DNA from: an uncultured bacterium | GTDB taxonomy: Bacteria; Acidobacteriota; Thermoanaerobaculia; Multivoradales; JAHZIX01 | Assembly (NCBI GenBank): GCA_965368975.1 | Contig: CBDUPA010000002.1 | Location: forward strand, 288,001-352,000 | Reading direction: 5' to 3' | Length of the DNA stretch: 64,000 nucleotides | Shown: positions 39,256-54,965 of the stretch, piece after piece | Layout: every line of letters starts with the position of its first letter | How positions within the stretch are numbered: position 1 is the stretch's first letter | Program-made: the position numbers and the translations under genes | The notes under the pieces: model-generated | Databases searched by the model: none | Told to the model about the DNA's origin: nothing | The model's input: the letters and a program-made list of their open reading frames with translations, nothing else

Positions 39256-40542
39256 ATGCAAAGATTCACCTTCAGCGTCGCCGGCCTGATCGTTCTGCTG
39301 CTGGCCAGCGGCGGCTGCGACCTCGATACCAGCGCCGCAACCAAGGCGCGCCCGAAGAGCGTCGAGGAGACTCTCCGCGACCTCGAGCAGCGCGAACAGC
39401 GCGTGCGCGATCGCGAAGTCGAACTGGCCGAGCAGAGCGAAGTCCTGGACTCCCGCGAAGCCAACCTACAAGCCCGCGAGCAGGGCGTCGTCGGCACCGA
39501 GAGCGACGTCGACGAACGCGCGCAGCAGCTGACGGCCCAAGTCGAGACCCTGGAGAGTCAGCTAGCGGCTCTGCAGCAACGAGAGAACGAGCTGGCGCGG
39601 GAACTGGAAGAAGCCGACGCACGCGCCCGTGAGCTGCAAACGCGCCAGGCGAGGCTCGACGAAGTCGATCAGTTGCTGCGCCAGCGCGAGAGCCGGCTCA
39701 CCGAGCGCGAAGACAAGGCCGCGCAGCGCGCCAGACAGCTCGACACCAGCGCAACGCAGCTGCGCCAACGCGAGCAGCGGGTGCACCAAGACGAAGCACA
39801 GCTACAGCAACGTCAGGCCACCCTGGACACGCAAGCTGCCCAGGTCCAGGACGAACGCCGACAGCTGGAGCGCGACGCGGCAGAGCTGGAGGCACAGCGT
39901 CAACGGCTGGCGCGCAGCGGGACCCTACCGCCCTATCAAGACCGCAACGAGCCGACCATTCCGCGGCGCACCGACGATCCGCGACGGCAGACACCTCCAC
40001 CGGTCAGTGGCGAGGCTCGTCCGATTGACGTTCGCCTACCCGCGGGGACGGAGTTGCAGGTCGAGTTTCTCGCATCCCTGAGCAGTGCCAGACAGCGCAG
40101 CGGCCAGACGTTTCGTACCCGGGTGTTCGAAGACCTCTATATCGACAACCGCCTGGCCATACCCGCCGGCTCCGAAGTCCTCGGCCTGGTGCATGGTGTG
40201 ACCGCTCTGCGCGATCGCGACGGCCGAGCGTGCCTCGAACTGCGCTTCACCCACCTGGTCCCCCGTGGCGGCACCTCCATCCCGATCCACGCCGAGTGGG
40301 TGGAAACGAGCAGCGACCGCAGCGGCCGCGACGCTGCCACCATCGGAGCCGCGACCCTGGGCGGCGCCTTGCTCGGCCGCATCCTTGATCGCGGCGGTGA
40401 CGGCGGCACCATCGTCGGCGCCATCCTGGGGGCCGCCACCGGCGCGGTGATCACCGGCAACCGCGGTGAAGAAGCCACCATCGACCAGGGCACCGTCATC
40501 CGGATGCGGCTGGAAGAGTCGGTCCGGGTGTCCAGCCGCTAG
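39256..40542 (+). CDS. Putative lipoprotein with long coiled coil and C-terminal beta-rich/glycine-zipper region
   Basis: Signal peptide ending ASGGC; E/Q/R-rich heptads; LPAGT.L...LSS...IPAGS.V.G; GAATLGGALLG...GAILGAATG. Confidence 0.7.
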   Translation: MQRFTFSVAGLIVLLLASGGCDLDTSAATKARPKSVEETLRDLEQREQRVRDREVELAEQSEVLDSREANLQAREQGVVGTESDVDERAQQLTAQVETLESQLAALQQRENELARELEEADARARELQTRQARLDEVDQLLRQRESRLTEREDKAAQRARQLDTSATQLRQREQRVHQDEAQLQQRQATLDTQAAQVQDERRQLERDAAELEAQRQRLARSGTLPPYQDRNEPTIPRRTDDPRRQTPPPVSGEARPIDVRLPAGTELQVEFLASLSSARQRSGQTFRTRVFEDLYIDNRLAIPAGSEVLGLVHGVTALRDRDGRACLELRFTHLVPRGGTSIPIHAEWVETSSDRSGRDAATIGAATLGGALLGRILDRGGDGGTIVGAILGAATGAVITGNRGEEATIDQGTVIRMRLEESVRVSSR

Positions 40543-43023: not shown

Positions 43024-44349
43024 GTGATCTTGATGCCAGATCCATCTCTATTGACTACGAGTGATAGTCGAAGTTTCATCGATGCCCTACCAGACTGGTT
43101 TGGTTGGGCCCTCTTGGGGATCTTTGCTACCTGTGTCTTCATTTTCGGCTACGCATACCGAAGCGTTCGGACCGGGCAAGAAGGGTCCTCAGAGCCACCA
43201 AGAGTAGTCGTCATCCCTCGCGATCATTACGACTTATCCAGGCTCGCACTTTCTGCCTTATTGTTAGCAGTCAGCGCTGTGGCAACCATCGTTCTTCCTT
43301 TTACCTTCTACGACTCCCAGACTAAACGGGATCAGGAAGCTCTCCGAATCTCTAAGCTAGAACTCGCCCTTCCACTTCTTGCCGAGCAAGACCCCAGCGC
43401 AGTGAGGACTGGCCTACTGACTCTTGATCGTTTGGGAGATACGCAAAGGGCCCTCGAATTTGCAAGAAGCTCTAACAACCGTGGGGTAATATCCGGCCTT
43501 GTTCAAATCATCTCCGACCAGAATCGACAGCCATCTCTCAGGGACTTCAAGTGCGACCGAGCCTTAAACCCAAGCACCGAAGCCCGAATACTGGAGACAA
43601 TTAGAAGAGGTATGCAGACCAGGTGGGCCTCTGCAATTGCAGAAATCACCTACCGAAATTACCAGAATATCCCCGCACTGAACAATACTACCTCAACAGG
43701 CCTTTTGTTAAGCCAGGAGCTTACGAACAAGGCGTCTTCCACAACTTCGAACCAACCTATGCTTCTTTTTGATCCTGAGTTAAGAACCCGAAAGGACTTG
43801 TGCCCCGAGGAAGAGAAACAGGAAGAGGAGGAAGAGAAACAGGAAGAGAACGAGGAAGAGAACGAGGAAGAGAACGAGGAAGAGAACGAGGAAGAGAACG
43901 AGGAAGAGAGCAAGCCTAGTCTGGAGTTCATCACTCTTTCTGGCATCTCAGGCAGCGTTGAGTTCTGCTGTGAATGTCAAGCACCAGTCCATTTTGGCAA
44001 CTCTGAAGTGGACGAGCAACAATGGAAAATTGTACGACCAGGGGTAAACCTAGGAGATCATGTGATCGGAATCTCCAGAAACAGAAGTGCGCCCGTGCTC
44101 CGCGAGGACGGAGACGCAGAGTGCTTGCTCACCGCGATTCCTGGCCGAATAATCAGAGTAAATGACCAAATCGTGGAAGTGAAGTTCCTCAAGCAGACCT
44201 TCCCGCCGGATTTCATATTCTCAGAGTATGGATACTTCCTAGGGTATCGGACAATAGAACGGGCTCCGCCTGGAAGCGAGTTAGTAAGACTTACAGCTAT
44301 CTACACATCCGTTACACGACAGGATGTGACTATCAAAGAAGGATGGTGA
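43024..44349 (+). CDS. Hypothetical lower-GC membrane protein with acidic repeat
   Basis: Two N-terminal TM segments; GGAGG RBS; EEEN repeats. Confidence 0.7.
   Translation: MILMPDPSLLTTSDSRSFIDALPDWFGWALLGIFATCVFIFGYAYRSVRTGQEGSSEPPRVVVIPRDHYDLSRLALSALLLAVSAVATIVLPFTFYDSQTKRDQEALRISKLELALPLLAEQDPSAVRTGLLTLDRLGDTQRALEFARSSNNRGVISGLVQIISDQNRQPSLRDFKCDRALNPSTEARILETIRRGMQTRWASAIAEITYRNYQNIPALNNTTSTGLLLSQELTNKASSTTSNQPMLLFDPELRTRKDLCPEEEKQEEEEEKQEENEEENEEENEEENEEENEEESKPSLEFITLSGISGSVEFCCECQAPVHFGNSEVDEQQWKIVRPGVNLGDHVIGISRNRSAPVLREDGDAECLLTAIPGRIIRVNDQIVEVKFLKQTFPPDFIFSEYGYFLGYRTIERAPPGSELVRLTAIYTSVTRQDVTIKEGW
43807..43910 (+). repeat. 12-bp tandem repeat GAGGAAGAGAAC encoding EEEN/EEKQ
   Basis: Seen directly. 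Confidence 0.95.
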
Positions 44350-44352
44350 AGG

Positions 44353-44631
44353 ATGAGAGGCCTAATAACCGAAAACAGGATAATCCCAACATGCGTCAAT
44401 GCCACAGATGTGCTAGTTTTTGCTGGGGTCCTGATTTTCATCGTCCTAGGGCTGTTTCCCAGCCTAATCGAAGAGGATGTACCCGAGACTCAGCCACCAG
44501 TAGACTTCATGCTTCCGAGCTGCCTTGCCCAACAGGGCTATGCGCTTCGACATCTTGGACAAGAGCCGCAGATTGGCGGAACTATCAATCCAGCTACCTT
44601 GAGGTGCTCAGGTGCTCCAACCAACTGCTAG
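44353..44631 (+). CDS. Small exported peptide A (C-terminus GTINPATLRCSGAPTNC)
   Basis: Hydrophobic N-terminal segment. The C-terminus is conserved with 49750-50001 at the protein level, with many synonymous differences. Confidence 0.8.
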   Translation: MRGLITENRIIPTCVNATDVLVFAGVLIFIVLGLFPSLIEEDVPETQPPVDFMLPSCLAQQGYALRHLGQEPQIGGTINPATLRCSGAPTNC

Positions 44632-45886
44632 GATAAGAAGGCTAATCCCAAGGAGAAGCATCATTGTTCAAGTGACTCTCGTTTTCGGCCTTGGTGCCTG
44701 CGGCTGGGAAGGAGAGCGAGTAGAGTTGACCCCTCCACCTAGATGGGTTTCCAGCTTACACATAAATTCGACCGAGAGTTCTTTCCTGATTATTGTAGAT
44801 CCTACAGCTGAAGTAGAGGACGGCCTACTCTTCTATGACCACAGAGGCTCAAGTCTCCGCATGCAGCACCCGGCCAATGGAATGATGGTGGTTGCTATGC
44901 AAGCTTTCGGTTCTGGCGATATCTCAAGAGTTCCCGGCAGCGGGTACATCGCACAAACTGACGGACCCAAGTTCCTGCATTTTGATGACCAACTCAAGCT
45001 CAGGAGCGAAGTCTTCGATAAGACAACGCTCCTCATCAATGGAGCAGCTCAATGCAACTCAAGCATTGAGACGGAATCTAATTTCAAATTTGCAACAATC
45101 GGCATGCCTATAGCATGGCATTTTTCTGCTGAACGGTTGTTCCTCTTGGGAGATATCCAGGTGTTTGAAGGGCCTCCAGAAGACTCCGAGGGCTCATGGA
45201 TGTTTGGCCTACTAGAGATTGACAGATCTGCATCAAGGCCGTCATTCAATATCATCGGTAGCCTGCATTCGGTCGACGAATCCACCAGAGATCAGCATTT
45301 GGATCAATCCACCAGAGATCGGCATTTGTATGCTCGCTTTCCGGTCCTCACAGTTGTCAAGAATTATCTTTATTTCCTGCATTTAGAGGAGAACCCGACA
45401 ATCCTCAGATACAGAATCGGTAGCTGCGCAGAACCCAGGGTCATCCTAGCGCTCAGTGAAAGGCCATTCCAACTAACAGCTCCGAATGTACCTCGGAGGA
45501 TTTCTGGGCCAGATGTTGGCAGCGTTTTCAAAGCTCAGGAGATGTCGGATATGCCGATAGGCCTATTCAACTGGGAAGACCGGTTGGTCTTGGCATCACG
45601 GCGCAGAGCAGTCCCGGGTGCAACTACTGATTGGGAGTTACATCTGCTTAAGGGAGCACGCTCAAGCTCTCTTGAGCTGGATCGTTCACTTAAACTCACC
45701 CAAGTGAGTGCCTCCCACCTGATGATTGCTCCTGGAGACCCTGAGTGGGTATTTCTGGAGCAAGGCACTGTCGAGAGTCTGGGATTTCAGAATCAGGAAT
45801 CCATCTTAATACTTCCGAATTCAAGAATACAGCACTGCTTCCACAAGAGCGGAGACGGAGTCACTGCTGAGTGCCCGCCGGTCTAA
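44612..45886 (+). CDS. Exported beta-rich (propeller-like) protein A, unknown function; start uncertain
   Basis: Lipobox-like LGAC; motifs collinear with 50105-51235. Confidence 0.7.
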   Translation: MLQPTARIRRLIPRRSIIVQVTLVFGLGACGWEGERVELTPPPRWVSSLHINSTESSFLIIVDPTAEVEDGLLFYDHRGSSLRMQHPANGMMVVAMQAFGSGDISRVPGSGYIAQTDGPKFLHFDDQLKLRSEVFDKTTLLINGAAQCNSSIETESNFKFATIGMPIAWHFSAERLFLLGDIQVFEGPPEDSEGSWMFGLLEIDRSASRPSFNIIGSLHSVDESTRDQHLDQSTRDRHLYARFPVLTVVKNYLYFLHLEENPTILRYRIGSCAEPRVILALSERPFQLTAPNVPRRISGPDVGSVFKAQEMSDMPIGLFNWEDRLVLASRRRAVPGATTDWELHLLKGARSSSLELDRSLKLTQVSASHLMIAPGDPEWVFLEQGTVESLGFQNQESILILPNSRIQHCFHKSGDGVTAECPPV

Positions 45887-45894
45887 GAGGCAGC

Positions 45895-47304
45895 CTAGGT
45901 CCACCCGATCCACACCGCTACCACCAACGCGACGCACGCCACGATCCACGCCTTGACCAGGAACGGCAGCACAAAGCGCACCCAGCGGTCATAAGGAATA
46001 CGGGCGATCGACAAGATACCGACGAGCACCGCGTTGGTCGGCACCAGGATGTTGGTGAGACCGTCGCCGAACTGGTAGGCCAGCACCGACACCTGACGCG
46101 ACACGCCGACGAGATCCCCGATCGGTGCCATCAGCGGCACGGTCACGTACGCTTGACCGCTGCCGGAGGGGATGAAGAAGTTACACAGGCTTTGGAACAC
46201 CAGCATACCGACGGCGGCAAGCTCCGGACCCAGAGTCTCCAAGGTCGACGCAATGCTGTGGATGATCGTATCGACGACTTGACCCTCGTCCAGCACCAAC
46301 TCGATCGTGCGCGCAAAACCGATCAGGAGCGCGGTCGTCGTAAGTTCGGCGGCGCCGTGGCAGAAGTTCTTGGCGGTGCCATCGAAGCCGAGACGTCCGG
46401 CGAGGCCCAGGACGATCGAGAGGCCGAGGAAGAGAGCTCCCATCTCGACCAGGTACCAGCCCTGGCTGACCAGACCCCAGATCAACAAACCGACGGCGGC
46501 AACTGTGACGAACAGGGACAGCTTGTGCCGCCCGGTCAGGCTCGGGTGCTCGTTGGCGTCGACGGTGGCGGGTGGCTCGATGCCGGCGACCAGGGACTTC
46601 GACGGATCCGCCTTGACCTTGCTGGCATAGCTCCACACATGGTGAATGCCGATGGCCAGGAAGACGACGACCCAAGCGAGGCGGTATGGCATGCCGGAGC
46701 CTTGAGGCAGGCCAGCAATGTCCTGCGCGATGAAGATGGTGAAGGGGTTGATGATCGCCAGGCCGTAGCCAATGCCGTAGCCGATGCACATCACGCCAAC
46801 GGCGGTCACAGCGTCGAAGCCCAGGGCAACGCACAGCGCAACGAGCATGAGGACGAAGGGTATGTACTCCTCCGCCATGCCAATCGTGCTAGAGCCAACG
46901 GCGAAGAGCAGGATGCCGCCGGTGATCAACCAGAAGGGTCGATGACCGAGCCGGCGCAGCAGAGCGCCGATGGCGGCATCGGCAGCGCCGGTGGCGCGGA
47001 AGACACCGAACGCTCCGCCGACGATGAAGACGAAGAAGATGATGTTCTGCGCCGCCGCAAAGCCGGCCGGGATGGCGGTGAGCGGCGTCAGGGGGCTGAG
47101 CGTCGTGGGCTCTGCGGCGCGTTCGTAACTGCCCGCGACGACACGGTCGTGACCGTCGACCTCCTGGCGCTCGTACTGCCCCTGCGGCAGCAGGTAGGTG
47201 AGTACCAGCGCCAGCACGATCATGCCAAAGAGCAGCACTAGCGTATGGGGCACGCGGAAGCCTGAACTGGAAGGGGCGGAACCGCTCTTGGTAGTCTCAG
47301 CCAT
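45895..47304 (-). CDS. YfcC/DcuC-family transporter
   Basis: [33 protein letters not shown] and AYQFGDG motifs. Confidence 0.9.
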
Positions 47305-47475
47305 AGTCTTCTCCTAATATCTTCCTCGGTGTGGCGTACATCAAGCCGATGCGCGCCGAGTTAACCACATCTGACCCCGAGGCGACGAGAGCAGTCTTGA
47401 ACCGCTGTAAGACTCACGCTCCTCAACAGAACACTGGTGCTGGGTCGCATCGTCGTCTGACGCGCCATAGACACC

Positions 47476-49499
47476 ATTGGTAGATCCTTACACGTTTCTA
47501 AGCGGTCGCCCGCTCGGGTAGATGTCAAGACCCCCTTTCAAACCGTGCTTGCGGATTTCCCGCACACGGCTTACGGATGGCCTCTCGGGTCGCGGCATTA
47601 CGCAGCCTCCGGGTAGCGGATCGTGCCCATGAGCTTGTAGAGCCCGAGGTTCCAGAAGGACTCACTCGTCCAGCGGCGCGCCTCGCCCAGCTTCAGGTGC
47701 CGCCCTTTGCGCGTAAGGCGCAAGCGGCGCAGTCGTCGCCAGACGTAGGTGTCGACTTGAACGAATTGCTTGGCGGCGTTTCCCGTGCGGAAGTACTGAC
47801 TCCACCCTCGAAGCACGGGGTTGAGACTCGCGATGACATCGCGCAGATCCGCGTGGCATCGTGACCTCGGAGTCAGCTCTTTGATGCGCTGCCGTATACG
47901 CTGCATCGAGCGCTGCGACGGCCAACGGTGGAGAAAGTAGAGCCGACGCCCCGTCTTCTCCCACAATCGACCGCTCAAACGCTTGTGCAGGTGGCAGCCG
48001 AGGAAGTCGAACCCCTCCTTGCCGTCGTAGAGATTCACTCGCCTCGTCTTCTCCGGGTGTAGCTCCAGACCAAGACGTTCCAGGATCACGCGGATCCGCG
48101 CCTCGGCCTGATCGCACTGGGACTTCGTGCGACAGATCACGACGAAGTCGTCTGCGTACCGCACCAGCGTCCCCAAGGGAGCGCTGTGGCGCGTCCACAG
48201 CGTGTCCAGCACATGCAGGTAGATGTTCGACAGCAAGGGTGAAATCACACCACCCTGCGGTGTACCGACCCGCGTCGGCGACACCTTGCCGTCCTCCATC
48301 ACACCAGCTTCGAGCCACTGCCGCAGCAGCTTCAGCATCCGCCGATCCGAGACGCGCCGTGCCACCAGAAGCAACAGCTTCCGGTGGTCGATGCTCCCGA
48401 AGTAGTCCCGGATGTCGGCATCGAGCACGTGATGATGCCCCTTGGCGCCGAGCTTCCTCAGCGTCTCCAGCGCATCCGTCGCACTCCGCTTTGGCCGGAA
48501 ACCATACGAGACGGGCAAGAAATCCGCCTCGAAGATCGCCTCCAACACCAGCTTTGCCGCCATCTGGACCACACGGTCTCGTACCGTCGGGATACCCAGC
48601 GGCCGCTTCCTTCCATCTGCCTTCGGGATGTACCGGCGCAGCACCACCTCAGGCCGATACTTCTTGGCTCGCAGCGAGGAACCGAGCTCTTCCAGGAAGC
48701 GCTCGGTACCGTACTGCTCCACGTCGCCTAGCGTCGCGGCATCGACGCCCGCGGCTCCGCGGTTGGCTCGTACCCGCTTCCACGCCTCCCACAGGATGTC
48801 ATCCCTGTGGATGTGGTTGTACAGGGCGTGGAAACGCCTACCCGGCGACCGCTTGGCCGCCGCCCACAGTCGACGTTGGAGGTGGCGCACTTTCACGCTC
48901 GGCCTACGGCCGACGGGGTCGATAGGTCCGGTCTTGCCGGCCATTCCCTTGCACGTGCCTCCACCCTCGACATGACCAAACCAGGGACCCTTCCCTAAGG
49001 CGGCGTTCTTCTGCACCGCCTTCACCGGTACTACGATCCCCTCGGACTCCCGCTGCGCACGACCCGACTTCGCCTTCGGCCTATACGGGCACGCTGGCCG
49101 CGACAACGGCTGCACAGACGGGTCTCTCGTGTTCCGCGCGTCTCCTTGCACACGTGCTGCGCCCCATACCCCGCCGGCATCCGACGCAGGCTCCGGATCT
49201 GACCCCACGCCGGACATGGCCTTCGCCGTGACATGAGCGGCTCGGCTACCGAATTGTAAATCTGTCGAGGCTGCAGGCTTCACTTCATGTTGCGGCCCGT
49301 GTGCTTGCTCCCCGTCCAGCGGAAATTCTCCGCCTCCGGGCTTGTGACGCCCCGCTCGGGCAAAGGGGTCTCCCCCAAATACCTGGGGCCGGCTACTCGG
49401 CGCTCCGGCGCTTACCGAGGTGGGACTTTCACCCACTGGACACGCGCAGCGCACAGATCTCTCCCCGGAAACCAGAGTTCGATCTGTTTCACGACGCAC
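47476..49499 (-). mobile_element. Group II intron (full length)
   Basis: 5' end GTGCG at 49499. Domain V AAGCCGTGTGCGGGAAATCCGCAAGCACGGTTT at 47572-47540. Domain VI and 3' end ...CTACCAAT at 47476. Internal RT ORF present. Confidence 0.92.
47598..48944 (-). CDS. ltrA: Group II intron reverse transcriptase/maturase, no endonuclease domain
   Basis: RPLGIPTVRDR, SYGFRPKRS, GTPQGGVISPLLSNIYL, RYADD, FDFLG and maturase LNPVLRGW..YF motifs. The frame is open upstream to ATG 49502. Confidence 0.93.
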   Translation of the reverse strand: MAGKTGPIDPVGRRPSVKVRHLQRRLWAAAKRSPGRRFHALYNHIHRDDILWEAWKRVRANRGAAGVDAATLGDVEQYGTERFLEELGSSLRAKKYRPEVVLRRYIPKADGRKRPLGIPTVRDRVVQMAAKLVLEAIFEADFLPVSYGFRPKRSATDALETLRKLGAKGHHHVLDADIRDYFGSIDHRKLLLLVARRVSDRRMLKLLRQWLEAGVMEDGKVSPTRVGTPQGGVISPLLSNIYLHVLDTLWTRHSAPLGTLVRYADDFVVICRTKSQCDQAEARIRVILERLGLELHPEKTRRVNLYDGKEGFDFLGCHLHKRLSGRLWEKTGRRLYFLHRWPSQRSMQRIRQRIKELTPRSRCHADLRDVIASLNPVLRGWSQYFRTGNAAKQFVQVDTYVWRRLRRLRLTRKGRHLKLGEARRWTSESFWNLGLYKLMGTIRYPEAA

Positions 49500-49600
49500 C
49501 ATGGCCTCATTCTAGGTCCGACAACGCGTACTAGTATTGAGCCAGAAGATTCGCTAGCAAGAACATTCCCAGCGAGCCTCAGACTGATTGGGCCAATAGG

Positions 49601-49630
49601 TTGACAAGCAAAGTTGGCCGGAGCTACACT
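49601..49630 (+). promoter_or_regulatory. Possible sigma70 promoter for peptide B cassette
   Basis: TTGACA-18 nt-TACACT. Confidence 0.45.
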
Positions 49631-49749
49631 CTCATTCTTCTTTTCTCCTCCTTATTTCGGTCTAACTTCAATCTCAGAATCTGTGTTCTCCATGCAACAA
49701 AGACCGGAGAATCGCGTTTCTGTTATAGTATGAGTACCCGAAGGAGCCA

Positions 49750-50001
49750 TTGATGAAATTGCACAAGAGACTTTGGCGGGTTTCGGCTATTTGTGTTGCT
49801 CTGCTCGCATTTTCGGCAGGCGCAGTAGGCCAAGGACACTGTCCATCGCAAACAGCCTCTTCTGCTGCCAGGGACTTTGGCAGTACAAGCTGCACGGACA
49901 AGAGCAATCACCGGGGGGACTTGCACGAATCTCCTGACATCCTATCCGGAACGATCAATCCCATCTCCCTGACGTGCAGTGGCGCACCAACAAACTGCTG
50001 A
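49750..50001 (+). CDS. Small secreted peptide B (C-terminus GTINPISLTCSGAPTNC)
   Basis: AAGGAG RBS, Sec-type signal peptide, conserved C-terminal motif. Confidence 0.85.
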   Translation: MMKLHKRLWRVSAICVALLAFSAGAVGQGHCPSQTASSAARDFGSTSCTDKSNHRGDLHESPDILSGTINPISLTCSGAPTNC

Positions 50002-50104
50002 GTCCTTCCCCCCGACTGAGAACCAGGTAAAACGATCAATGAACATGCCAGAATCTGCTCTCTTGGCAGCCTACTCCTCTTGGGCTGACCGGTACTACAC
50101 TTTC

Positions 50105-51235
50105 ATGCGGTGGCTACTTGCCTTAGCGGTTCTGTTGTCCGCATTGGGCAACCCAGCATTCGCTCAGACAAGCGAGAGCTGCACGCAGTTTCGGTTGAGT
50201 GCTGCACCGGATTGGACAGCGTCCATCGCTTGGTCTCCAAACCATCGCGCTTTGATCTTCGCGGACCCGACGTCGGCGACGCTTCACGCATTCCGACCTT
50301 CGTATCTCTCCAAGAGCATGATTCTGGATCCCGGCCTGACACAGACACTCAACGAGAACCAGCCAGCTAGACGCCCGTCGACGTTGCATCGAATCAGTTC
50401 TGGATTCCTACTGGAGGATGCGGCAGATGGCTCTATCGTGCGCCTCTCTTCAAGCTGGGAAAGTGTGGATCGAGTTCGCGTTGCAGGGATGTACCATCGT
50501 ACCCAAGGCACGTTGGAAGCTCTCCACAACTGGAGGCCGTCACCCGACGGCTCGGAGATCTTCGCCTATGGCGACGTCAAGGCCCAGGACTCTTCAAAGT
50601 GGACAGCTGCGTTGGTACGTATCGACCTGAGCGAGGAGACCTTCGAGGTGATCCAAGAACAGGAGTTCTCTTCGCCACTTCGCTCTCTTTACCTAGCCGG
50701 CCTACCCTACATCGAAGCAAGGGGAACACCTGCAACCTTCGTTGGGCAGAACACCAATGGTGAGATCAGGTTGGTACGACATGCTGCTGGGACGAGGACT
50801 GTCCAGGAACCACCTGGGCAGCTCCGAAGGTTCCTAAACTTCCGGGATTTTGTGCACTACAACGGTCTGGCAAACTTCGTCGACTTCTTTGATTCCCTCG
50901 GAAGTCGCGAGTACCTAGCAGGCTTTCTCGAGGTAGATGGTGTAAGCCACCTGCTACTGAGAGCCCGCACCGACGCTGGTCGATATGTTTGGGCTGTCGC
51001 AGACGAACAAGATGGCGACAGACAGCAGATTAGCTTCGTGCAGCTCCCCGTCCAGTCACCACAGGTACTTATCACCTCGACAGAGGATTCAGTCATCCTA
51101 GTCGAGGCCACCGTCACAGATGTTGGTCGGAAAGAATTTGGCTCGGTATGGGAGATTCCAAACAATCTCCTGAATTCAGCTGTGGCCCTGGCGCAAGAGC
51201 ACCCTGGGAGGGTCCGGCTAGTCTGCCAGAACTGA
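50105..51235 (+). CDS. Secreted beta-rich (propeller-like) protein B, unknown function
   Basis: Signal peptide MRWLLALAVLLSALGNPAFA; WSPN and PSPDG blade-like motifs; paralogous to 44612-45886. Confidence 0.75.
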   Translation: MRWLLALAVLLSALGNPAFAQTSESCTQFRLSAAPDWTASIAWSPNHRALIFADPTSATLHAFRPSYLSKSMILDPGLTQTLNENQPARRPSTLHRISSGFLLEDAADGSIVRLSSSWESVDRVRVAGMYHRTQGTLEALHNWRPSPDGSEIFAYGDVKAQDSSKWTAALVRIDLSEETFEVIQEQEFSSPLRSLYLAGLPYIEARGTPATFVGQNTNGEIRLVRHAAGTRTVQEPPGQLRRFLNFRDFVHYNGLANFVDFFDSLGSREYLAGFLEVDGVSHLLLRARTDAGRYVWAVADEQDGDRQQISFVQLPVQSPQVLITSTEDSVILVEATVTDVGRKEFGSVWEIPNNLLNSAVALAQEHPGRVRLVCQN

Positions 51236-51256: not shown

Positions 51257-51294
51257 AAACGACCCTTAGCTCCTTGGGAGCTTGAGGGTCGTTT
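51257..51294 (+). terminator. Hairpin downstream of cassette B
   Basis: AAACGACCCTTAGCTCC-ttg-GGAGCTTGAGGGTCGTTT. Confidence 0.6.
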
Positions 51295-51464
51295 CCCGTT
51301 TTGGGGTCCCAACCGTCTCGGCTCACTTCAAGAACTTCGGCCACAACCCCTGGTGTAGGATGCCCGCAATGAGAGGCATCGATCCCGGCCCTCTCGAGCG
51401 GCAACCGAACTCTCGACCTCTCCGCTCCAACGCCCACCGACAACCAGACGCAAGGGAGGCACGC

Positions 51465-54400
51465 ATGACGCGTAGCACGTGGACCCTCGGACTCGTTCTC
51501 ATCCTGCTCGCCGCCCTCACGGCGGTACCGGCCGTCGCCTCGAAGACGCAACCGGCACCCGGCACCTCCGCCGGCCTCGACGCCGATCTGCTCGCCGGCA
51601 TGACGGCACGCGCCATTGGCCCGGCGGCGATGAGCGGTCGTATCGGCTCGATCGACGCGCTGGCGAATGACCCGAACGTGATCTACGTGGGCGCCGCCAC
51701 CGGCGGCTTGTGGCGCACGCGCAACGGCGGCGTCACCTGGGAGCCGATCTTCGACGATCAGCCGGTAGCAGCGATCGGAGCAGTGACGCTGGAGCAGGCG
51801 AATCCGGACGTGGTGTGGGTGGGCACCGGCGAGGGCAACACGCGCAACAGCGTGTCCGTGGGCAACGGCGTCTACAAGTCGCTCGACGGCGGCGACACCT
51901 GGACGCACCAAGGCCTCGACCAGACCGAGCGCATCCACCGCATCCGCCTGCATCCCGACAACGCGGACATCGCCTATGTGTGCGCCCTCGGCCAGCTGTG
52001 GGGCGAGAACGAGCAACGCGGCGTGTTCAAGACCACCAACGGCGGCACGACGTGGGCCAAGATCCTGTACGTCGACGAGCGCACCGGCTGCTCCGACCTG
52101 GAAGTGGACCCAGTGAACGGTGACAAGGTGATCGTGGGCATGTGGCAGCACCGCCGCTGGCCGTGGTCCTTCAAGTCAGGTGGCCCGGGCTCCGGGCTCT
52201 ACGTAACCCATGACGGCGGCGCGACCTGGACGCAGCGCACGCAGGACGACGGCCTACCGGAAGGGCACCTCGGCCGTATCGGCCTGGCGATTTCTCACTC
52301 GCAGCCGAACGTGGTCTACGCCATCGTCGAGGCCGAGAAGTCGGCTCTGCTGCGTTCCGACGACGGCGGCAAGACGTTCCGCGCCGTCAACACGAACAAC
52401 AACGTCATCTCGCGGCCCTTCTACTACGCCGACATCCGCGTCGACCCGAAGAACCCGAACCGTGTGTACAACCTGTGGTCGCTGCTTTCGGCCTCGGACG
52501 ATGGCGGCCGCACCTTCGACATCATCGGCTCCTGGAACACGATCCATCCCGACCACCACGAGCTGTGGATCCATCCGCACAACCCGCGCTTGCTGATCAA
52601 CGGCAACGACGGCGGCGTCACGATCTCGCAGGACCACGGCCGCACCTGGCGCTTCATCGGCAACCTGCCCTTGGCGCAGTTCTACCACGTGCGAGCTGAC
52701 AACCAGATCCCTTACAACGTCTACGGCGGCCTGCAGGACAACGGCTCCTGGGTCGGCCCCAACGAGGTGTGGGAGAACGGCGGCATCCGCAACCACCACT
52801 GGCAGGAAGTCAATTTCGGCGATGGCTTCGACACCGTGCCGGACCCGCAGATCCCCAACCAGGGCTACGCCATGGCGCAGACAGGCTACCTCGTGCGCTG
52901 GAACCTGGACACCGGCGAACAAAAAGAAATCCGACCAGCACCGCCGGCGGAGGACGAGAAGCTGCTGCGCTTCAATTGGAATGCCGGCATCGAATTCGAC
53001 CCGCACGACCCGACCGGCGCCACCGTCTACTACGGCAGCCAGTACATCCACAAGTCGACTGACCGCGGAGACACCTGGACGATCATCAGCCCGGACCTGA
53101 CCACCAACAACCCAGAGTGGCAGAAGCAGGCGGAGAGCGGCGGCCTGACGCTGGACGTGACCGGTGCCGAGAACTTCACCTCGATTCTGGCGATCGACCC
53201 CAGCCCGGTGCAGGAAGGCGTGATCTGGGCAGCCACCGACGACGGCCGCCTGCACGTGACGCAGGACGGCGGCGAGACCTGGACCAGCGTCGAGGGCAAC
53301 CTGCCGGGCGTACCGGCCAACACCTGGATCCCGCACGTCAACGCGTCGCCGCACGCCGCCGGCACCGCTTTCGTGGTGCTCGACGACCATCGGCGCTCCA
53401 ACTGGACCCCCTACGTGCTGCGCACCGACGACTTTGGCCAGACCTGGACGTCGCTGGTGAGCGACAACCTGTGGGGCTATGCCCTGGTGATCGAGCAGGA
53501 CCCGGTGGACCCGAACCTGCTGTTCCTGGGCACGGAGTTCGGCCTCTGGATCTCGACCGACGCCGGTAGCGGCTGGCTGCGCTTCGAGCACGGCGTGCCG
53601 ACGGTCAGCGTGATGGACCTGGCGATCCAGGAGACCGAGCACGACCTGGTGATCGGCACCCACGGTCGTGGCTTGTTCGTGCTGGACGACATCCGCCCCC
53701 TGCGCGGACTGGCCGCCGAGCACCAGGCGGGAGAGCTCCGCTTGTTCGAGATCCCCACCGCCTACCAGCACGAAGTCGCCCAGACTGGCTCCTCGCGCTT
53801 CCCGGGCAACATCGAGTTCCGCGGTGAGAACCCCCGCTACGGCGCGCTGCTCACCTTCTCCCTTCACGGCGACGACCTACCGCACCCGGACGAGGCGAAG
53901 GAACGCGAGCGCAAGGCCGCCGAACGCGCTGCCAAGCTGACCGAAGTCGAAGCCGGCGAGAGCACCGAACAAGAACCGGCACGGCGTCGCGGACGGCGCG
54001 CTGGCGCAGGTGGTCCAGGCCCAGGCGGCCCCCCGTGGGCGCGCGGCGACGACGGACCGCAGATCGACATCGAGGTCGCGGACGCCAGTGGTGAGGTCAT
54101 CCGCAGGTTCAAGGCACCCGCCCGCCAGGGTCTCAACCGGACCACCTGGAACCTGGCACGCGACGGCTTCCGTCGGCCAGCGGGGGACTTGCCCTTCTGG
54201 ATCACGGGAGCACCCACGGGACCGGCCGTACCGCCGGGCACCTACACGGTGACCGTGAAGTTCCGCGACCAGGAATCGAGCCAGACGGTCGAGGTGAAAG
54301 CCGATCCGCGCATCGATCCGCCCCAATCGCAAGCGACCTGGGAAGCCCACTACCAGGGCCTGCTCGACGTCGGGGCCCTACAGGAGGTCCTCACCGACGC

Positions 54401-54965
54401 TGTAGAGCGTATCGACGCGACCAAGACGAGCGTCGACAGCCTGCTGGCCCGCGCCGGTACCCTCAACAAGGAAGCTCTCGAGGCAGAAGAGGAGGAAGGC
54501 GGCGAGATAGAAGACGCTGCTTCCGAGACAGCTGACTCAGACACGGGCGACACCGAAGGCGAAGCGGGCAACACCAGCGGCACCGAGGTCGCGGCGACCG
54601 AAGAAGACGAGGCAGCCCGCGGTCCATACGGGGAACTGCTCAAGGCCGGCCGTGAGCTGAACGAGCAGCTCGACGGACTGCGCGAACGCCTGGTCGGTCC
54701 CGAAGAGAGCAAGGGCATCCAGGAGGACACCGACGCGCAAAGCTACCTGGGCGGTGTCCGCGGCTCGATGAGTTCCTCGTGGGATCCGCCGACGGCGGCA
54801 CAGCTGGCCTACCTGGAGCGCGTGCGCCAGCAACTGGCGGCAATCCTGGAAGACCTCAACCGCGTCCACGCCGAGGACGTCGCCGCCTTCCGGACCCAGG
54901 TGCGCGAGTCGCAACTCGACTGGCTGCCCGAGCAAGAACCTCTGACGCTGCCCGAGTCGGAGTAG
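51465..54965 (+). CDS. VPS10/BNR (Asp-box) repeat sortilin-like secreted protein
   Basis: RAIGPAAMSGRI, many S/TxDGGxTW boxes, GGLQDNGSW and GTHGRG motifs; signal peptide. Confidence 0.92.
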   Translation: MTRSTWTLGLVLILLAALTAVPAVASKTQPAPGTSAGLDADLLAGMTARAIGPAAMSGRIGSIDALANDPNVIYVGAATGGLWRTRNGGVTWEPIFDDQPVAAIGAVTLEQANPDVVWVGTGEGNTRNSVSVGNGVYKSLDGGDTWTHQGLDQTERIHRIRLHPDNADIAYVCALGQLWGENEQRGVFKTTNGGTTWAKILYVDERTGCSDLEVDPVNGDKVIVGMWQHRRWPWSFKSGGPGSGLYVTHDGGATWTQRTQDDGLPEGHLGRIGLAISHSQPNVVYAIVEAEKSALLRSDDGGKTFRAVNTNNNVISRPFYYADIRVDPKNPNRVYNLWSLLSASDDGGRTFDIIGSWNTIHPDHHELWIHPHNPRLLINGNDGGVTISQDHGRTWRFIGNLPLAQFYHVRADNQIPYNVYGGLQDNGSWVGPNEVWENGGIRNHHWQEVNFGDGFDTVPDPQIPNQGYAMAQTGYLVRWNLDTGEQKEIRPAPPAEDEKLLRFNWNAGIEFDPHDPTGATVYYGSQYIHKSTDRGDTWTIISPDLTTNNPEWQKQAESGGLTLDVTGAENFTSILAIDPSPVQEGVIWAATDDGRLHVTQDGGETWTSVEGNLPGVPANTWIPHVNASPHAAGTAFVVLDDHRRSNWTPYVLRTDDFGQTWTSLVSDNLWGYALVIEQDPVDPNLLFLGTEFGLWISTDAGSGWLRFEHGVPTVSVMDLAIQETEHDLVIGTHGRGLFVLDDIRPLRGLAAEHQAGELRLFEIPTAYQHEVAQTGSSRFPGNIEFRGENPRYGALLTFSLHGDDLPHPDEAKERERKAAERAAKLTEVEAGESTEQEPARRRGRRAGAGGPGPGGPPWARGDDGPQIDIEVADASGEVIRRFKAPARQGLNRTTWNLARDGFRRPAGDLPFWITGAPTGPAVPPGTYTVTVKFRDQESSQTVEVKADPRIDPPQSQATWEAHYQGLLDVGALQEVLTDAVERIDATKTSVDSLLARAGTLNKEALEAEEEEGGEIEDAASETADSDTGDTEGEAGNTSGTEVAATEEDEAARGPYGELLKAGRELNEQLDGLRERLVGPEESKGIQEDTDAQSYLGGVRGSMSSSWDPPTAAQLAYLERVRQQLAAILEDLNRVHAEDVAAFRTQVRESQLDWLPEQEPLTLPESE

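Follow-up and report, generated by a model that had tools for sequence, protein, structure and literature searches.

Beta-propellers of the NHL type, like those of Brat, TRIM2/3/71 and Thin (Pfam PF01436), have six blades. NHL domains bind ligands on their top face. The subject here is a pair of gene cassettes in a stretch of 64,000 nucleotides (nt) from an uncultured Acidobacteriota bacterium (contig CBDUPA010000002.1, positions 288,001 to 352,000), which is called the window below. Each cassette holds a short open reading frame (ORF) for an exported peptide, followed by one for an exported protein that is predicted to be a propeller of this kind. That this is a real, conserved two-gene module can be said with high confidence. 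On balance, the products of each cassette are probably a cognate binding pair outside the cytoplasm: the cysteine-closed C-terminal loop of the peptide would plug the face of the propeller. Physical binding of this tail comes from structure prediction and is held with moderate confidence, any physiological role with low confidence.

The likeness to NHL propellers lies in the six-bladed fold and, for propeller 2, also in the predicted placement of the ligand on the top face. It does not extend to the Pfam NHL model, which is reached by 0/78 family members at E<=0.01. The family also consists of exported bacterial proteins with N- and C-terminal cysteines, and the proposed partner is a peptide from the neighbouring gene, not an RNA or a cytosolic protein.

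NHLRC2 and plant SOQ1 are proteins of an oxidising compartment in which a thioredoxin-fold module is joined to a propeller of the NHL type. SOQ1 has been proposed to exchange disulfides with a client, according to the accessible parts of the sources (PMC6107167; bioRxiv 10.1101/2021.03.16.435614). Something alike is seen here in 6/21 loci (the window and 20 other neighbourhoods, whose ORFs were clustered), where a ResA/TlpA-like gene comes after the propeller. The thioredoxin-like domain is however fused in NHLRC2/SOQ1 and a separate gene here, with none in the window cassettes, and the likeness is by description. In the window's propeller ORFs, nothing but a signal peptide or lipobox stands ahead of the propeller itself. 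The same accessible text describes no dedicated small peptide partner for NHLRC2/SOQ1.

TolB is a periplasmic six-bladed propeller that grips a short epitope, the 'TolB-box', at the end of a disordered chain (colicin E9, Pal/TolA). A TolB-like structure is among the fold neighbours found here (2ojh, Z 14.4). A relation in sequence, the Tol-Pal context and the TolB N-terminal domain are however all missing, and the epitope would here be the cysteine-closed C-terminal loop of the adjacent gene's product. In methylamine dehydrogenase, MauB is a propeller heavy subunit, MauA a Cys-rich light subunit and MauD a thioredoxin-like helper. The cast here is analogous: a small Cys-rich protein and a propeller, both exported, and in some operons a thioredoxin-like protein. 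Bacteriocins and ribosomally synthesised and post-translationally modified peptides with double-glycine leaders differ from the present peptides, which have Sec-type N-termini; no C39 peptidase/ABC exporter or maturase is conserved in the 21 loci. No description of the present pairing was found in the literature, supplements and subscription journals being outside the coverage; one candidate paper, PMC10875860, was unrelated.

The two peptides end directly at their stop codons, in GTINPATLRCSGAPTNC for peptide 1 and in GTINPISLTCSGAPTNC for peptide 2. The original prediction, made from the letters of the DNA alone, had two short ORFs sharing 14 of their last 17 residues, with seven of the 14 identical residues encoded by different codons. 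Both statements are correct as placed. The codon differences include a serine that is TCA in one tail and AGT in the other, and the stop codons differ too. By codon position, there are 4 differences at the first, 3 at the second and 7 at the third. The DNA of the tails is identical at 22/30 positions, versus 5-11/30 outside the tail (ungapped, in the same register), which is the random level. In the tail's other five reading frames there is no conservation. Judged from sequence, the tail is shown to be conserved at the protein level, and would be the selected part against a diverged background. This background is one of low GC content at third codon positions (GC3) and long propeller branches, against which a tail that is 82% identical stands out as selected.

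Each peptide has the export-type hydrophobic segment that had been ascribed to it, as far as this can be read from the residues. In peptide 1, this is a signal-anchor-like segment, VLVFAGVLIFIVLGLF, behind an N-terminus of 19 residues and ahead of a variable linker. Peptide 2 starts with a typical Sec-type signal peptide, and its linker has two further cysteines. Neither peptide belongs to a Pfam or NCBIfam family. As a protein query, peptide 2 scored no homologue among 5.8 billion proteins.

The exact tail motif is rare. A six-frame pattern search of the source genome (7,125,974 bases, 59 contigs, 65.4% GC) returns these two tails and no others. The strict DNA pattern (NP-4x-C.GAP.NC-stop) finds only the window's two copies in 401 genomes of the phylum, and nothing in the genome contig collection. 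When relaxed (GT.N-5x-C.GAP.[ND]C), it finds one genome-contig record and nothing in metagenome contigs. This record (L033) is the same locus as L006, from an Acidobacteriota genome of another family. Here GTLNAGTGICTGAPDDC, with the near-identical motif GTLN-5x-CTGAPDDC, lies 10 nt upstream of a propeller. Together with GTFSNFGCDGAPRNC, which is directly followed by a stop in locus L057, it is the nearest relative of the window tail. The GTFSNFGCDGAPRNC tail ends an open frame of 321 aa (L057:2787-3752, minus strand) that has no Pfam match and an uncertain start; the loop may end a larger protein there.

The ORFs after the peptides are 424 aa (cassette 1) and 418 aa (cassette 2) long. Both look like exported proteins, as had been predicted, with a lipobox or signal peptide: propeller 1 has a lipobox-like LGAC behind a charged n-region (judged by eye), and in propeller 2 the ATG at 50105 stands immediately before the signal peptide MRWLLALAVLLSALGNPAFA. 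Compared with each other directly, the two are hard to relate. BLASTP gives an E of 0.92, local and semi-global scores are no better than those of shuffles, and a global alignment of the mature parts has a z of 2.3-3.1, with 0-4 of 400 shuffles reaching the score.

Profiles tell more. An exhaustive phmmer search with propeller 2 over 1.84 billion representatives gave 131 proteins at E<=1e-3, 25 of them at <=1e-10, and all except the self-match are 21-36% identical. An alignment, A1, was made of 77 of these relatives plus propeller 2 itself (78 rows). Using hhalign, A1 matches propeller 1 with a probability of 99.8% and an E of 6.8e-30, over 330 columns at 16% identity. The two window propellers are, by profile comparison, homologous, and detectably so by profile only. 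The collinear motifs that had been noticed in the two partners thus reflect real homology, a point that had been put up for refutation. Within its own genome, hmmsearch with the family profile recovers propeller 1 at E 4.5e-43, and three family members in total.

The family has no name. Propellers 1 and 2 and the 78 aligned members match no relevant Pfam or NCBIfam family, and for the window propellers there is no Pfam family at E<=1. A word search of the 5.8 billion proteins with propeller 1 finds only itself. Ten relatives that were looked up are unnamed or called 'hypothetical protein', with one from an Acidobacteria metagenome-assembled genome. In the Atlas, propeller 2 falls near 'hypothetical' and NHL/DUF5128/TolB_like clusters at 0.88-0.92, which is recognition below the stated level. 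The original prediction could not assign the pair to a named family, and indeed neither partner matches a characterised one. Of the three outcomes that had been named beforehand as refuting the prediction, none was observed.

An AlphaFold2 model of propeller 2, made with A1, has a predicted local distance difference test score (pLDDT) of 89.9 and a predicted template modelling score (pTM) of 0.84. In a VIA-align comparison with 48,161 chains, NHL domains rank first (1q7f with Z 16.1 and a root-mean-square deviation of 3.7 over 250 residues; 7nyq with Z 16.0). The runners-up are also six-bladed: MRJP/yellow, TolB-like structures, SGL lactonases, strictosidine synthase and peptidyl-alpha-hydroxyglycine alpha-amidating lyase (Z 13.7). 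Foldseek finds generic propellers. Between them, the two fold searches return generic propeller neighbours only, and no specific functional relative. The A1 profile matches solved NHL domains weakly and in part, with E from 9.8e-6 to 1e-3 over about 60-80 residues. The partner that had been called propeller-like is, in the model, a six-bladed NHL-like beta-propeller, yet by the Pfam model it is no member of the NHL family.

Searches with A1 find the family in 18/401 genomes of a phylum sample at E<=1e-5, mostly in the window's order, and in 60/401 genomes of a class sample at E<=1e-10 (58/340 high-quality genomes). The surroundings of 45 loci were inspected, of which two are cut by contig ends, leaving 43 that are testable. 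An upstream peptide was counted if it is on the same strand and has a hydrophobic N-terminus and a Cys-containing tail; these criteria were applied by eye and fixed post hoc. Such an exported Cys-loop ORF is present at 27/43 loci. Outside one genus the count is 25/31, inside it 2/12. The distance from the end of the upstream ORF to the propeller profile match is mostly <=~60 nt, with 111 nt in L046 and 140 nt in L057.

Within the last 35 residues, 24/27 peptides have Cx6C and the other three Cx7-8C. G-[TS]-hydrophobic stands ahead of the loop in 14/27. The loop, as read here, has the form C-x-G-x-P-x-x-C in 10/27, which are the two window peptides and those of L006, L035, L040, L053, L054, L055, L057 and L058. 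An alignment of 26 peptides, A3, matches no Pfam or NCBIfam family. As a profile against the 5.8 billion proteins, it finds three entries only, identical to three of the upstream ORFs and unnamed or 'hypothetical'. This means that such small exported ORFs are mostly missed by gene callers (3/26 are in that collection), and that they can be found via their conserved partner.

The third propeller of the source genome, on contig C16, has an ORF of 72 aa directly upstream, with a signal peptide and the end DCSGVSIACPSGPLQQT. Throughout this genome, 131 of 88,329 open segments combine a hydrophobic 12-mer with a Cx6C among their last 30 residues. The chance that such an ORF ends <=270 nt upstream of a gene is then ~0.0025 per gene. 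Since it is seen at 3/3 propeller paralogues, chance adjacency is excluded. At L079:9135-15887 and L004:3055-4092 (both minus strand), the third cassette lies just downstream of a very large ORF, the end of which resembles a non-ribosomal peptide synthetase adenylation domain plus a carrier-like part when judged by eye.

In the genus with few peptides, which is in the window's order, one to three tandem lipoprotein propellers lie directly downstream of a gene resembling a pyrroloquinoline quinone (PQQ)-dependent dehydrogenase, with no upstream peptide (L009-L014, L017, L023, L024, L030). One genome of that genus has propeller copies with Cys-rich peptides (L016, L025).

A complex was predicted for propeller 2 (residues 45-398, with A1) and peptide 2 (residues 27-82, with A3), along with three controls. 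The interaction prediction score from aligned errors (ipSAE) is 0.88, 0.85 and 0.88, versus 0.01, 0.01 and 0.00 for the controls, and the runs agree on >=67% of contacts. The confident interface covers residues 66-74 and 76-82 of the peptide, and so coincides exactly with its 17-residue tail. The propeller side is made up of loops from across the whole chain. Several of its residues are conserved among the 78 members: W59 in 77, S62 in 69, E126 in 61, D179 in 67, W188 in 57, G221 in 68 and G363 in 60. In the predicted complex, D179 contacts G77 and A78 of the loop. A cognate pair of an unnamed family, with a propeller-like partner and a Cx6C tail, as first suggested from the letters, is supported, and the prediction puts exactly the conserved tail on the propeller. 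The original prediction had left it between a ligand and receptor, a peptide and maturase or a toxin and immunity protein, with three variable tail positions that may set specificity.

This suggests how a cassette could work. Peptide 2 would be exported via its cleavable signal peptide, and peptide 1 is probably a membrane-anchored form, given the topology read from its sequence. The only conserved part of the peptides would be their C-terminal loop, G-T-hydrophobic...C-x-G-x-P-x-x-C, which a disulfide presumably closes. As a secreted or lipid-anchored six-bladed NHL-like propeller, the downstream protein would capture this loop on its central face, through the seven conserved residues just listed (propeller-2 numbering) plus variable ones.

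A number of points weigh against a binding pair. No peptide ORF is upstream at 16/43 testable loci (10/12 in the one genus and six others), so that the propeller can work without a peptide. Peptide and partner do co-occur elsewhere, 27/43 being the count over all testable loci. The wider peptide family is an alignment of 26 rows at 17% mean column identity, with criteria set post hoc. Cx6C arises easily by chance in Cys-rich tails. The number of cysteines behind the hydrophobic segment is odd in 10/27 peptides, and the disulfide is inferred. The window cassettes have neither the thioredoxin-fold gene nor the giant CarboxypepD_reg gene of fuller operons.

Other such points concern the complex itself. 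The ipSAE mark is one reached by 58/80 solved complexes but by 2/110 mismatched pairs, which favours the complex; with alignments made for this analysis, these counts hold only roughly. The binding itself is predicted, and the pLDDT of peptide 2 within the model is 50-54. Conservation is 0.435 in the interface versus 0.381 in the rest of the domain, which is not significant (permutation p 0.08). Between the two window propellers, 8/36 interface positions are identical versus 52/354 overall (p 0.14), and these eight are mostly the family-conserved ones. This means that tails that are 82% identical meet largely different pockets.

At some loci the module is larger. When the ORFs of the 21 loci are clustered, only three groups are conserved. 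The propeller is present in 21/21. A giant protein of 900-1100 aa with CarboxypepD_reg repeats (Pfam E 2.4e-55) is found just downstream of the propeller in 10/21. Between the two, in 6/21, sits a protein of 165-210 aa with an invariant Cys in an F-W-P-x-L-x-G-C-x-P-C-like motif, in which CxxC is intact in 3/6. The core of this smaller protein is modelled at pLDDT 86-95, and Foldseek relates it to ResA, DsbE/DsbF, TlpA and Sco-type thioredoxin folds, with E from 6.6e-6 to 1e-4. It has no Pfam or NCBIfam match, and its alignment finds nothing meaningful among the sequences of the PDB, so it was the fold search that made the identification.

The window pair would then represent, in its minimal form, an unannotated module that is spread across a class of Acidobacteriota; the fuller form would add the ResA/TlpA-like thioredoxin-fold protein and the giant CarboxypepD_reg-repeat protein. 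From the composition of the fuller operon, a loop that is handled by redox chemistry, with a role at the cell envelope or surface, would follow.

One relative carries the propeller in a different setting. In L045 (874-2673, plus strand), a single chain has a bSEFIR/TIR domain, a transmembrane helix and the propeller (Pfam SEFIR 3.7e-16, PADLOC bSEFIR 2e-50). This layout is receptor-like, and suggests that a protein of the defence or signalling type can use the propeller as its sensor on the outside. At E<=0.01, PADLOC matches none of the two peptides, the two propellers and the 441 aa ORF ahead of peptide 1; only the N-terminal domain of L045 is recognised (bSEFIR).

Two further arrangements were seen. 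In L047 (minus strand), the propeller of a 595 aa open frame is preceded by a long N-terminal extension, which holds a membrane helix and a charged, coiled-coil-like region, and there is no upstream peptide. In two genomes of one family (L061:4001-7111, minus strand; L062:8599-11580, plus strand), the pair adjoins a gene of ~1000 aa for a STAND-NTPase with leucine-rich repeats.

The thioredoxin-fold gene, the bSEFIR fusion and the NHLRC2/SOQ1 precedent, as far as its sources are accessible, point towards a redox-handled function in ligand sensing or envelope assembly. A bolder version is possible but doubtful. In it, the pairs form an undescribed class of bacterial peptide-receptor pairs outside the cytoplasm, in which a genetically linked, disulfide-closed C-terminal 'plug' loop is read by a dedicated NHL-like six-bladed propeller as a redox-gated ligand sensor of the Acidobacteriota envelope. 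The propeller could also be wired to a cytoplasmic bSEFIR/TIR domain or teamed with a thioredoxin-fold oxidoreductase, and paralogous pairs would be separate specificity channels.

Acidobacteriota are abundant soil bacteria with a poorly known envelope and signalling biology. The module joins two protein families without any annotation, yet it is in 60/401 genomes of the class sample. If the binding is true, this would be a new genetically encoded peptide-receptor pair, with paralogues for specificity studies, a possible redox switch and, via one relative, a link to bSEFIR/TIR.

Four other explanations were weighed. The first is that of a substrate and its maturase, where the Sec-exported peptide is a precursor and the periplasmic propeller an enzyme that modifies, cyclises or trims the C-terminal loop, helped in fuller operons by the thioredoxin-fold protein. 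Six-bladed propeller enzymes keep their active sites in the central face, which is where the tail is predicted to sit, and the fold neighbours include peptidyl-alpha-hydroxyglycine alpha-amidating lyase (3fw0, Z 13.7), strictosidine synthase and lactonases. These matches are however generic, with NHL binding domains on top and many rows tied. The variable linkers and conserved cores do look like those of precursor peptides, and a thiol-disulfide oxidoreductase-like gene is linked in 6/21 loci, but the 21 neighbourhoods show no further conserved maturase, protease or exporter. Among the family-conserved residues of the interface, no metal-binding or catalytic constellation is conserved. The histidine that is the best candidate (in column 342, 64/78 members) is outside the interface, and propeller 2 has Gln in its place. 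At the C-terminus the residues differ between peptides (C, G, P, N, S and others), which leaves no common amidation-type signal. A maturase is rather unlikely.

The second is a two-subunit periplasmic enzyme of the methylamine dehydrogenase type. A Cys-knotted small subunit would sit on the propeller, with its disulfides made by the thioredoxin-like helper, and might carry a Trp-derived cofactor. For the latter, G-[TS]-W is indeed found just ahead of the Cys loop in some family peptides (L004, L008, L041, L042, L043, L046), but both window tails have Ile at that position and contain no Trp for a tryptophan tryptophylquinone cofactor. The PQQ-dehydrogenase-like gene ahead of one genus's propellers could be counted in its favour, as could the ResA/TlpA-like gene of some operons; this gene is in 6/21 loci, with the window cassettes not among them, and has no NCBIfam match. 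MauB is seven-bladed, and the propeller here is six-bladed and NHL-like. Neither the propellers, the 26 peptides nor the thioredoxin-fold protein have a Pfam or NCBIfam match to the Mau subunits or MauD. No MauG, MauE or radical-SAM-like equivalent is a conserved neighbour. Quinohemoprotein amine dehydrogenase, with its small gamma subunit, propeller beta subunit and radical SAM maturase, fares no better as a model: no radical SAM maturase or haem subunit gene is conserved across the 21 neighbourhoods, and in the window the pairs adjoin a transporter, an intron and an unknown membrane protein. An enzyme of this kind is improbable.

In the third explanation, the peptide is a secreted toxin (a bacteriocin) that the propeller neutralises or gives immunity against. 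Tight linkage of the genes, fast evolution, low GC and several copies in one genome fit this, as does the predicted grip of the neighbouring gene's product on the tail. The conserved part is however a small polar loop, and what remains of the peptide is unconserved linker. Peptide 1 looks membrane-anchored and not released, and many propellers lack a peptide. The 21 neighbourhoods have no conserved gene dedicated to export or lysis, and there is no match in PADLOC, Pfam or NCBIfam. A toxin is quite improbable.

That the small ORFs are not genes, and the shared tail is chance or a regulatory DNA element such as a ribosome-binding region of the propeller genes, is hardly credible: the GTG start of propeller 1 at 44612 does overlap the tail of peptide 1, with GAGG inside it, and the peptide-2 search did come back without a homologue, but the substitutions fit the peptide frame and no other, signal-peptide Cys-loop ORFs recur ahead of diverged propellers at differing spacings and well beyond the chance expectation per gene, and public data include gene calls for three of the peptides.

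Under the favoured reading of a binding pair, the window copies, which are very divergent, would have been acquired horizontally or be evolving fast, with the tail alone kept. GC3 is 0.51-0.61 in the cassette genes versus 0.82-0.87 in the flanking native genes, which agrees with the earlier remark that both cassettes lie in lower-GC DNA. In a maximum-likelihood tree of 35 propellers, the window copies are in the larger clade, apart from the genome's third copy, on unresolved branches of 2.02 and 1.95 changes per column versus a median of 0.92. Low GC3 and long branches fit either a foreign origin or fast evolution. The tree was also tried for a choice between duplication in place and separate acquisition of the window copies. 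It does not decide this, the branches being too long and unresolved.

The features of the region are collected in Table 1.

Table 1 Features of the two cassettes and the DNA between them, in window coordinates.
Feature	Position	Strand	Remarks
ORF, 441 aa	43024..44349	+	possible part of cassette 1; two predicted membrane helices, acidic (E/N/K) tandem-repeat stretch
Peptide 1, 92 aa	44353..44631	+	tail codons 44578-44628, stop 44629-44631
Propeller 1, 424 aa from GTG 44612	44612..45886	+	profile alignment to propeller family
DcuC/YfcC-type transporter gene	45895..47304	-	native composition; between cassettes, outside module
Group II intron with reverse transcriptase (RT)/maturase ORF	47512..49502	-	directly upstream of cassette 2; outside module
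Sigma-70-like promoter match, TTGACA-18-TACACT	49601..49630	+	~120 nt upstream of peptide 2
Peptide 2, 82 aa from ATG 49753 (83 aa from TTG 49750)	49753..50001	+	tail codons 49948-49998, stop 49999-50001
Propeller 2, 398 aa from ATG 50039	50039..51235	+	alternative starts GTG 49979, ATG 50105

The 441 aa ORF may be a third component of cassette 1. Its stop is separated by a gap of 3 nt from the ATG of peptide 1, to which it is translationally coupled. Its GC3 of 0.53 resembles that of the cassette genes and not that of the native flanks. The two membrane helices were judged by eye, and the acidic, (E/N/K)-rich stretch is encoded by 12-nt tandem repeats at 43807-43926. Pfam and NCBIfam give weak low-complexity matches only, and the C-terminal domain (residues 300-441) has no match in the Atlas, Pfam, NCBIfam or PADLOC.

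The cassettes are separated by a native transporter gene and an intron, as had been described. The transporter matches Pfam DcuC at E 6.4e-95 and NCBIfam YfcC at E 3.3e-99, the latter below that model's cut-off, and has a GC3 of 0.83. The intron is recognised by Rfam RF00029 at 47512-47574 and RF02003 at 49285-49438, and its maturase by TIGR04416 at E 7.6e-124. It looks complete (Rfam D1-D4, D5/6, RT/maturase) and lies in the spacer that runs from the transporter gene to cassette 2, with approximate coordinates. The promoter match ahead of peptide 2 is a positional hint only, as the region has 3 sigma-70-like sites versus 3.1 expected from shuffles.

An unusual AT skew at 39500-39999 is explained by coding sequence of an ordinary coiled coil. 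Directly after cassette 2, at 51282-54965 on the plus strand, the window continues with a native high-GC gene for an exported protein of 1227 aa, which by eye looks like a repeat protein of the sortilin/BNR type.

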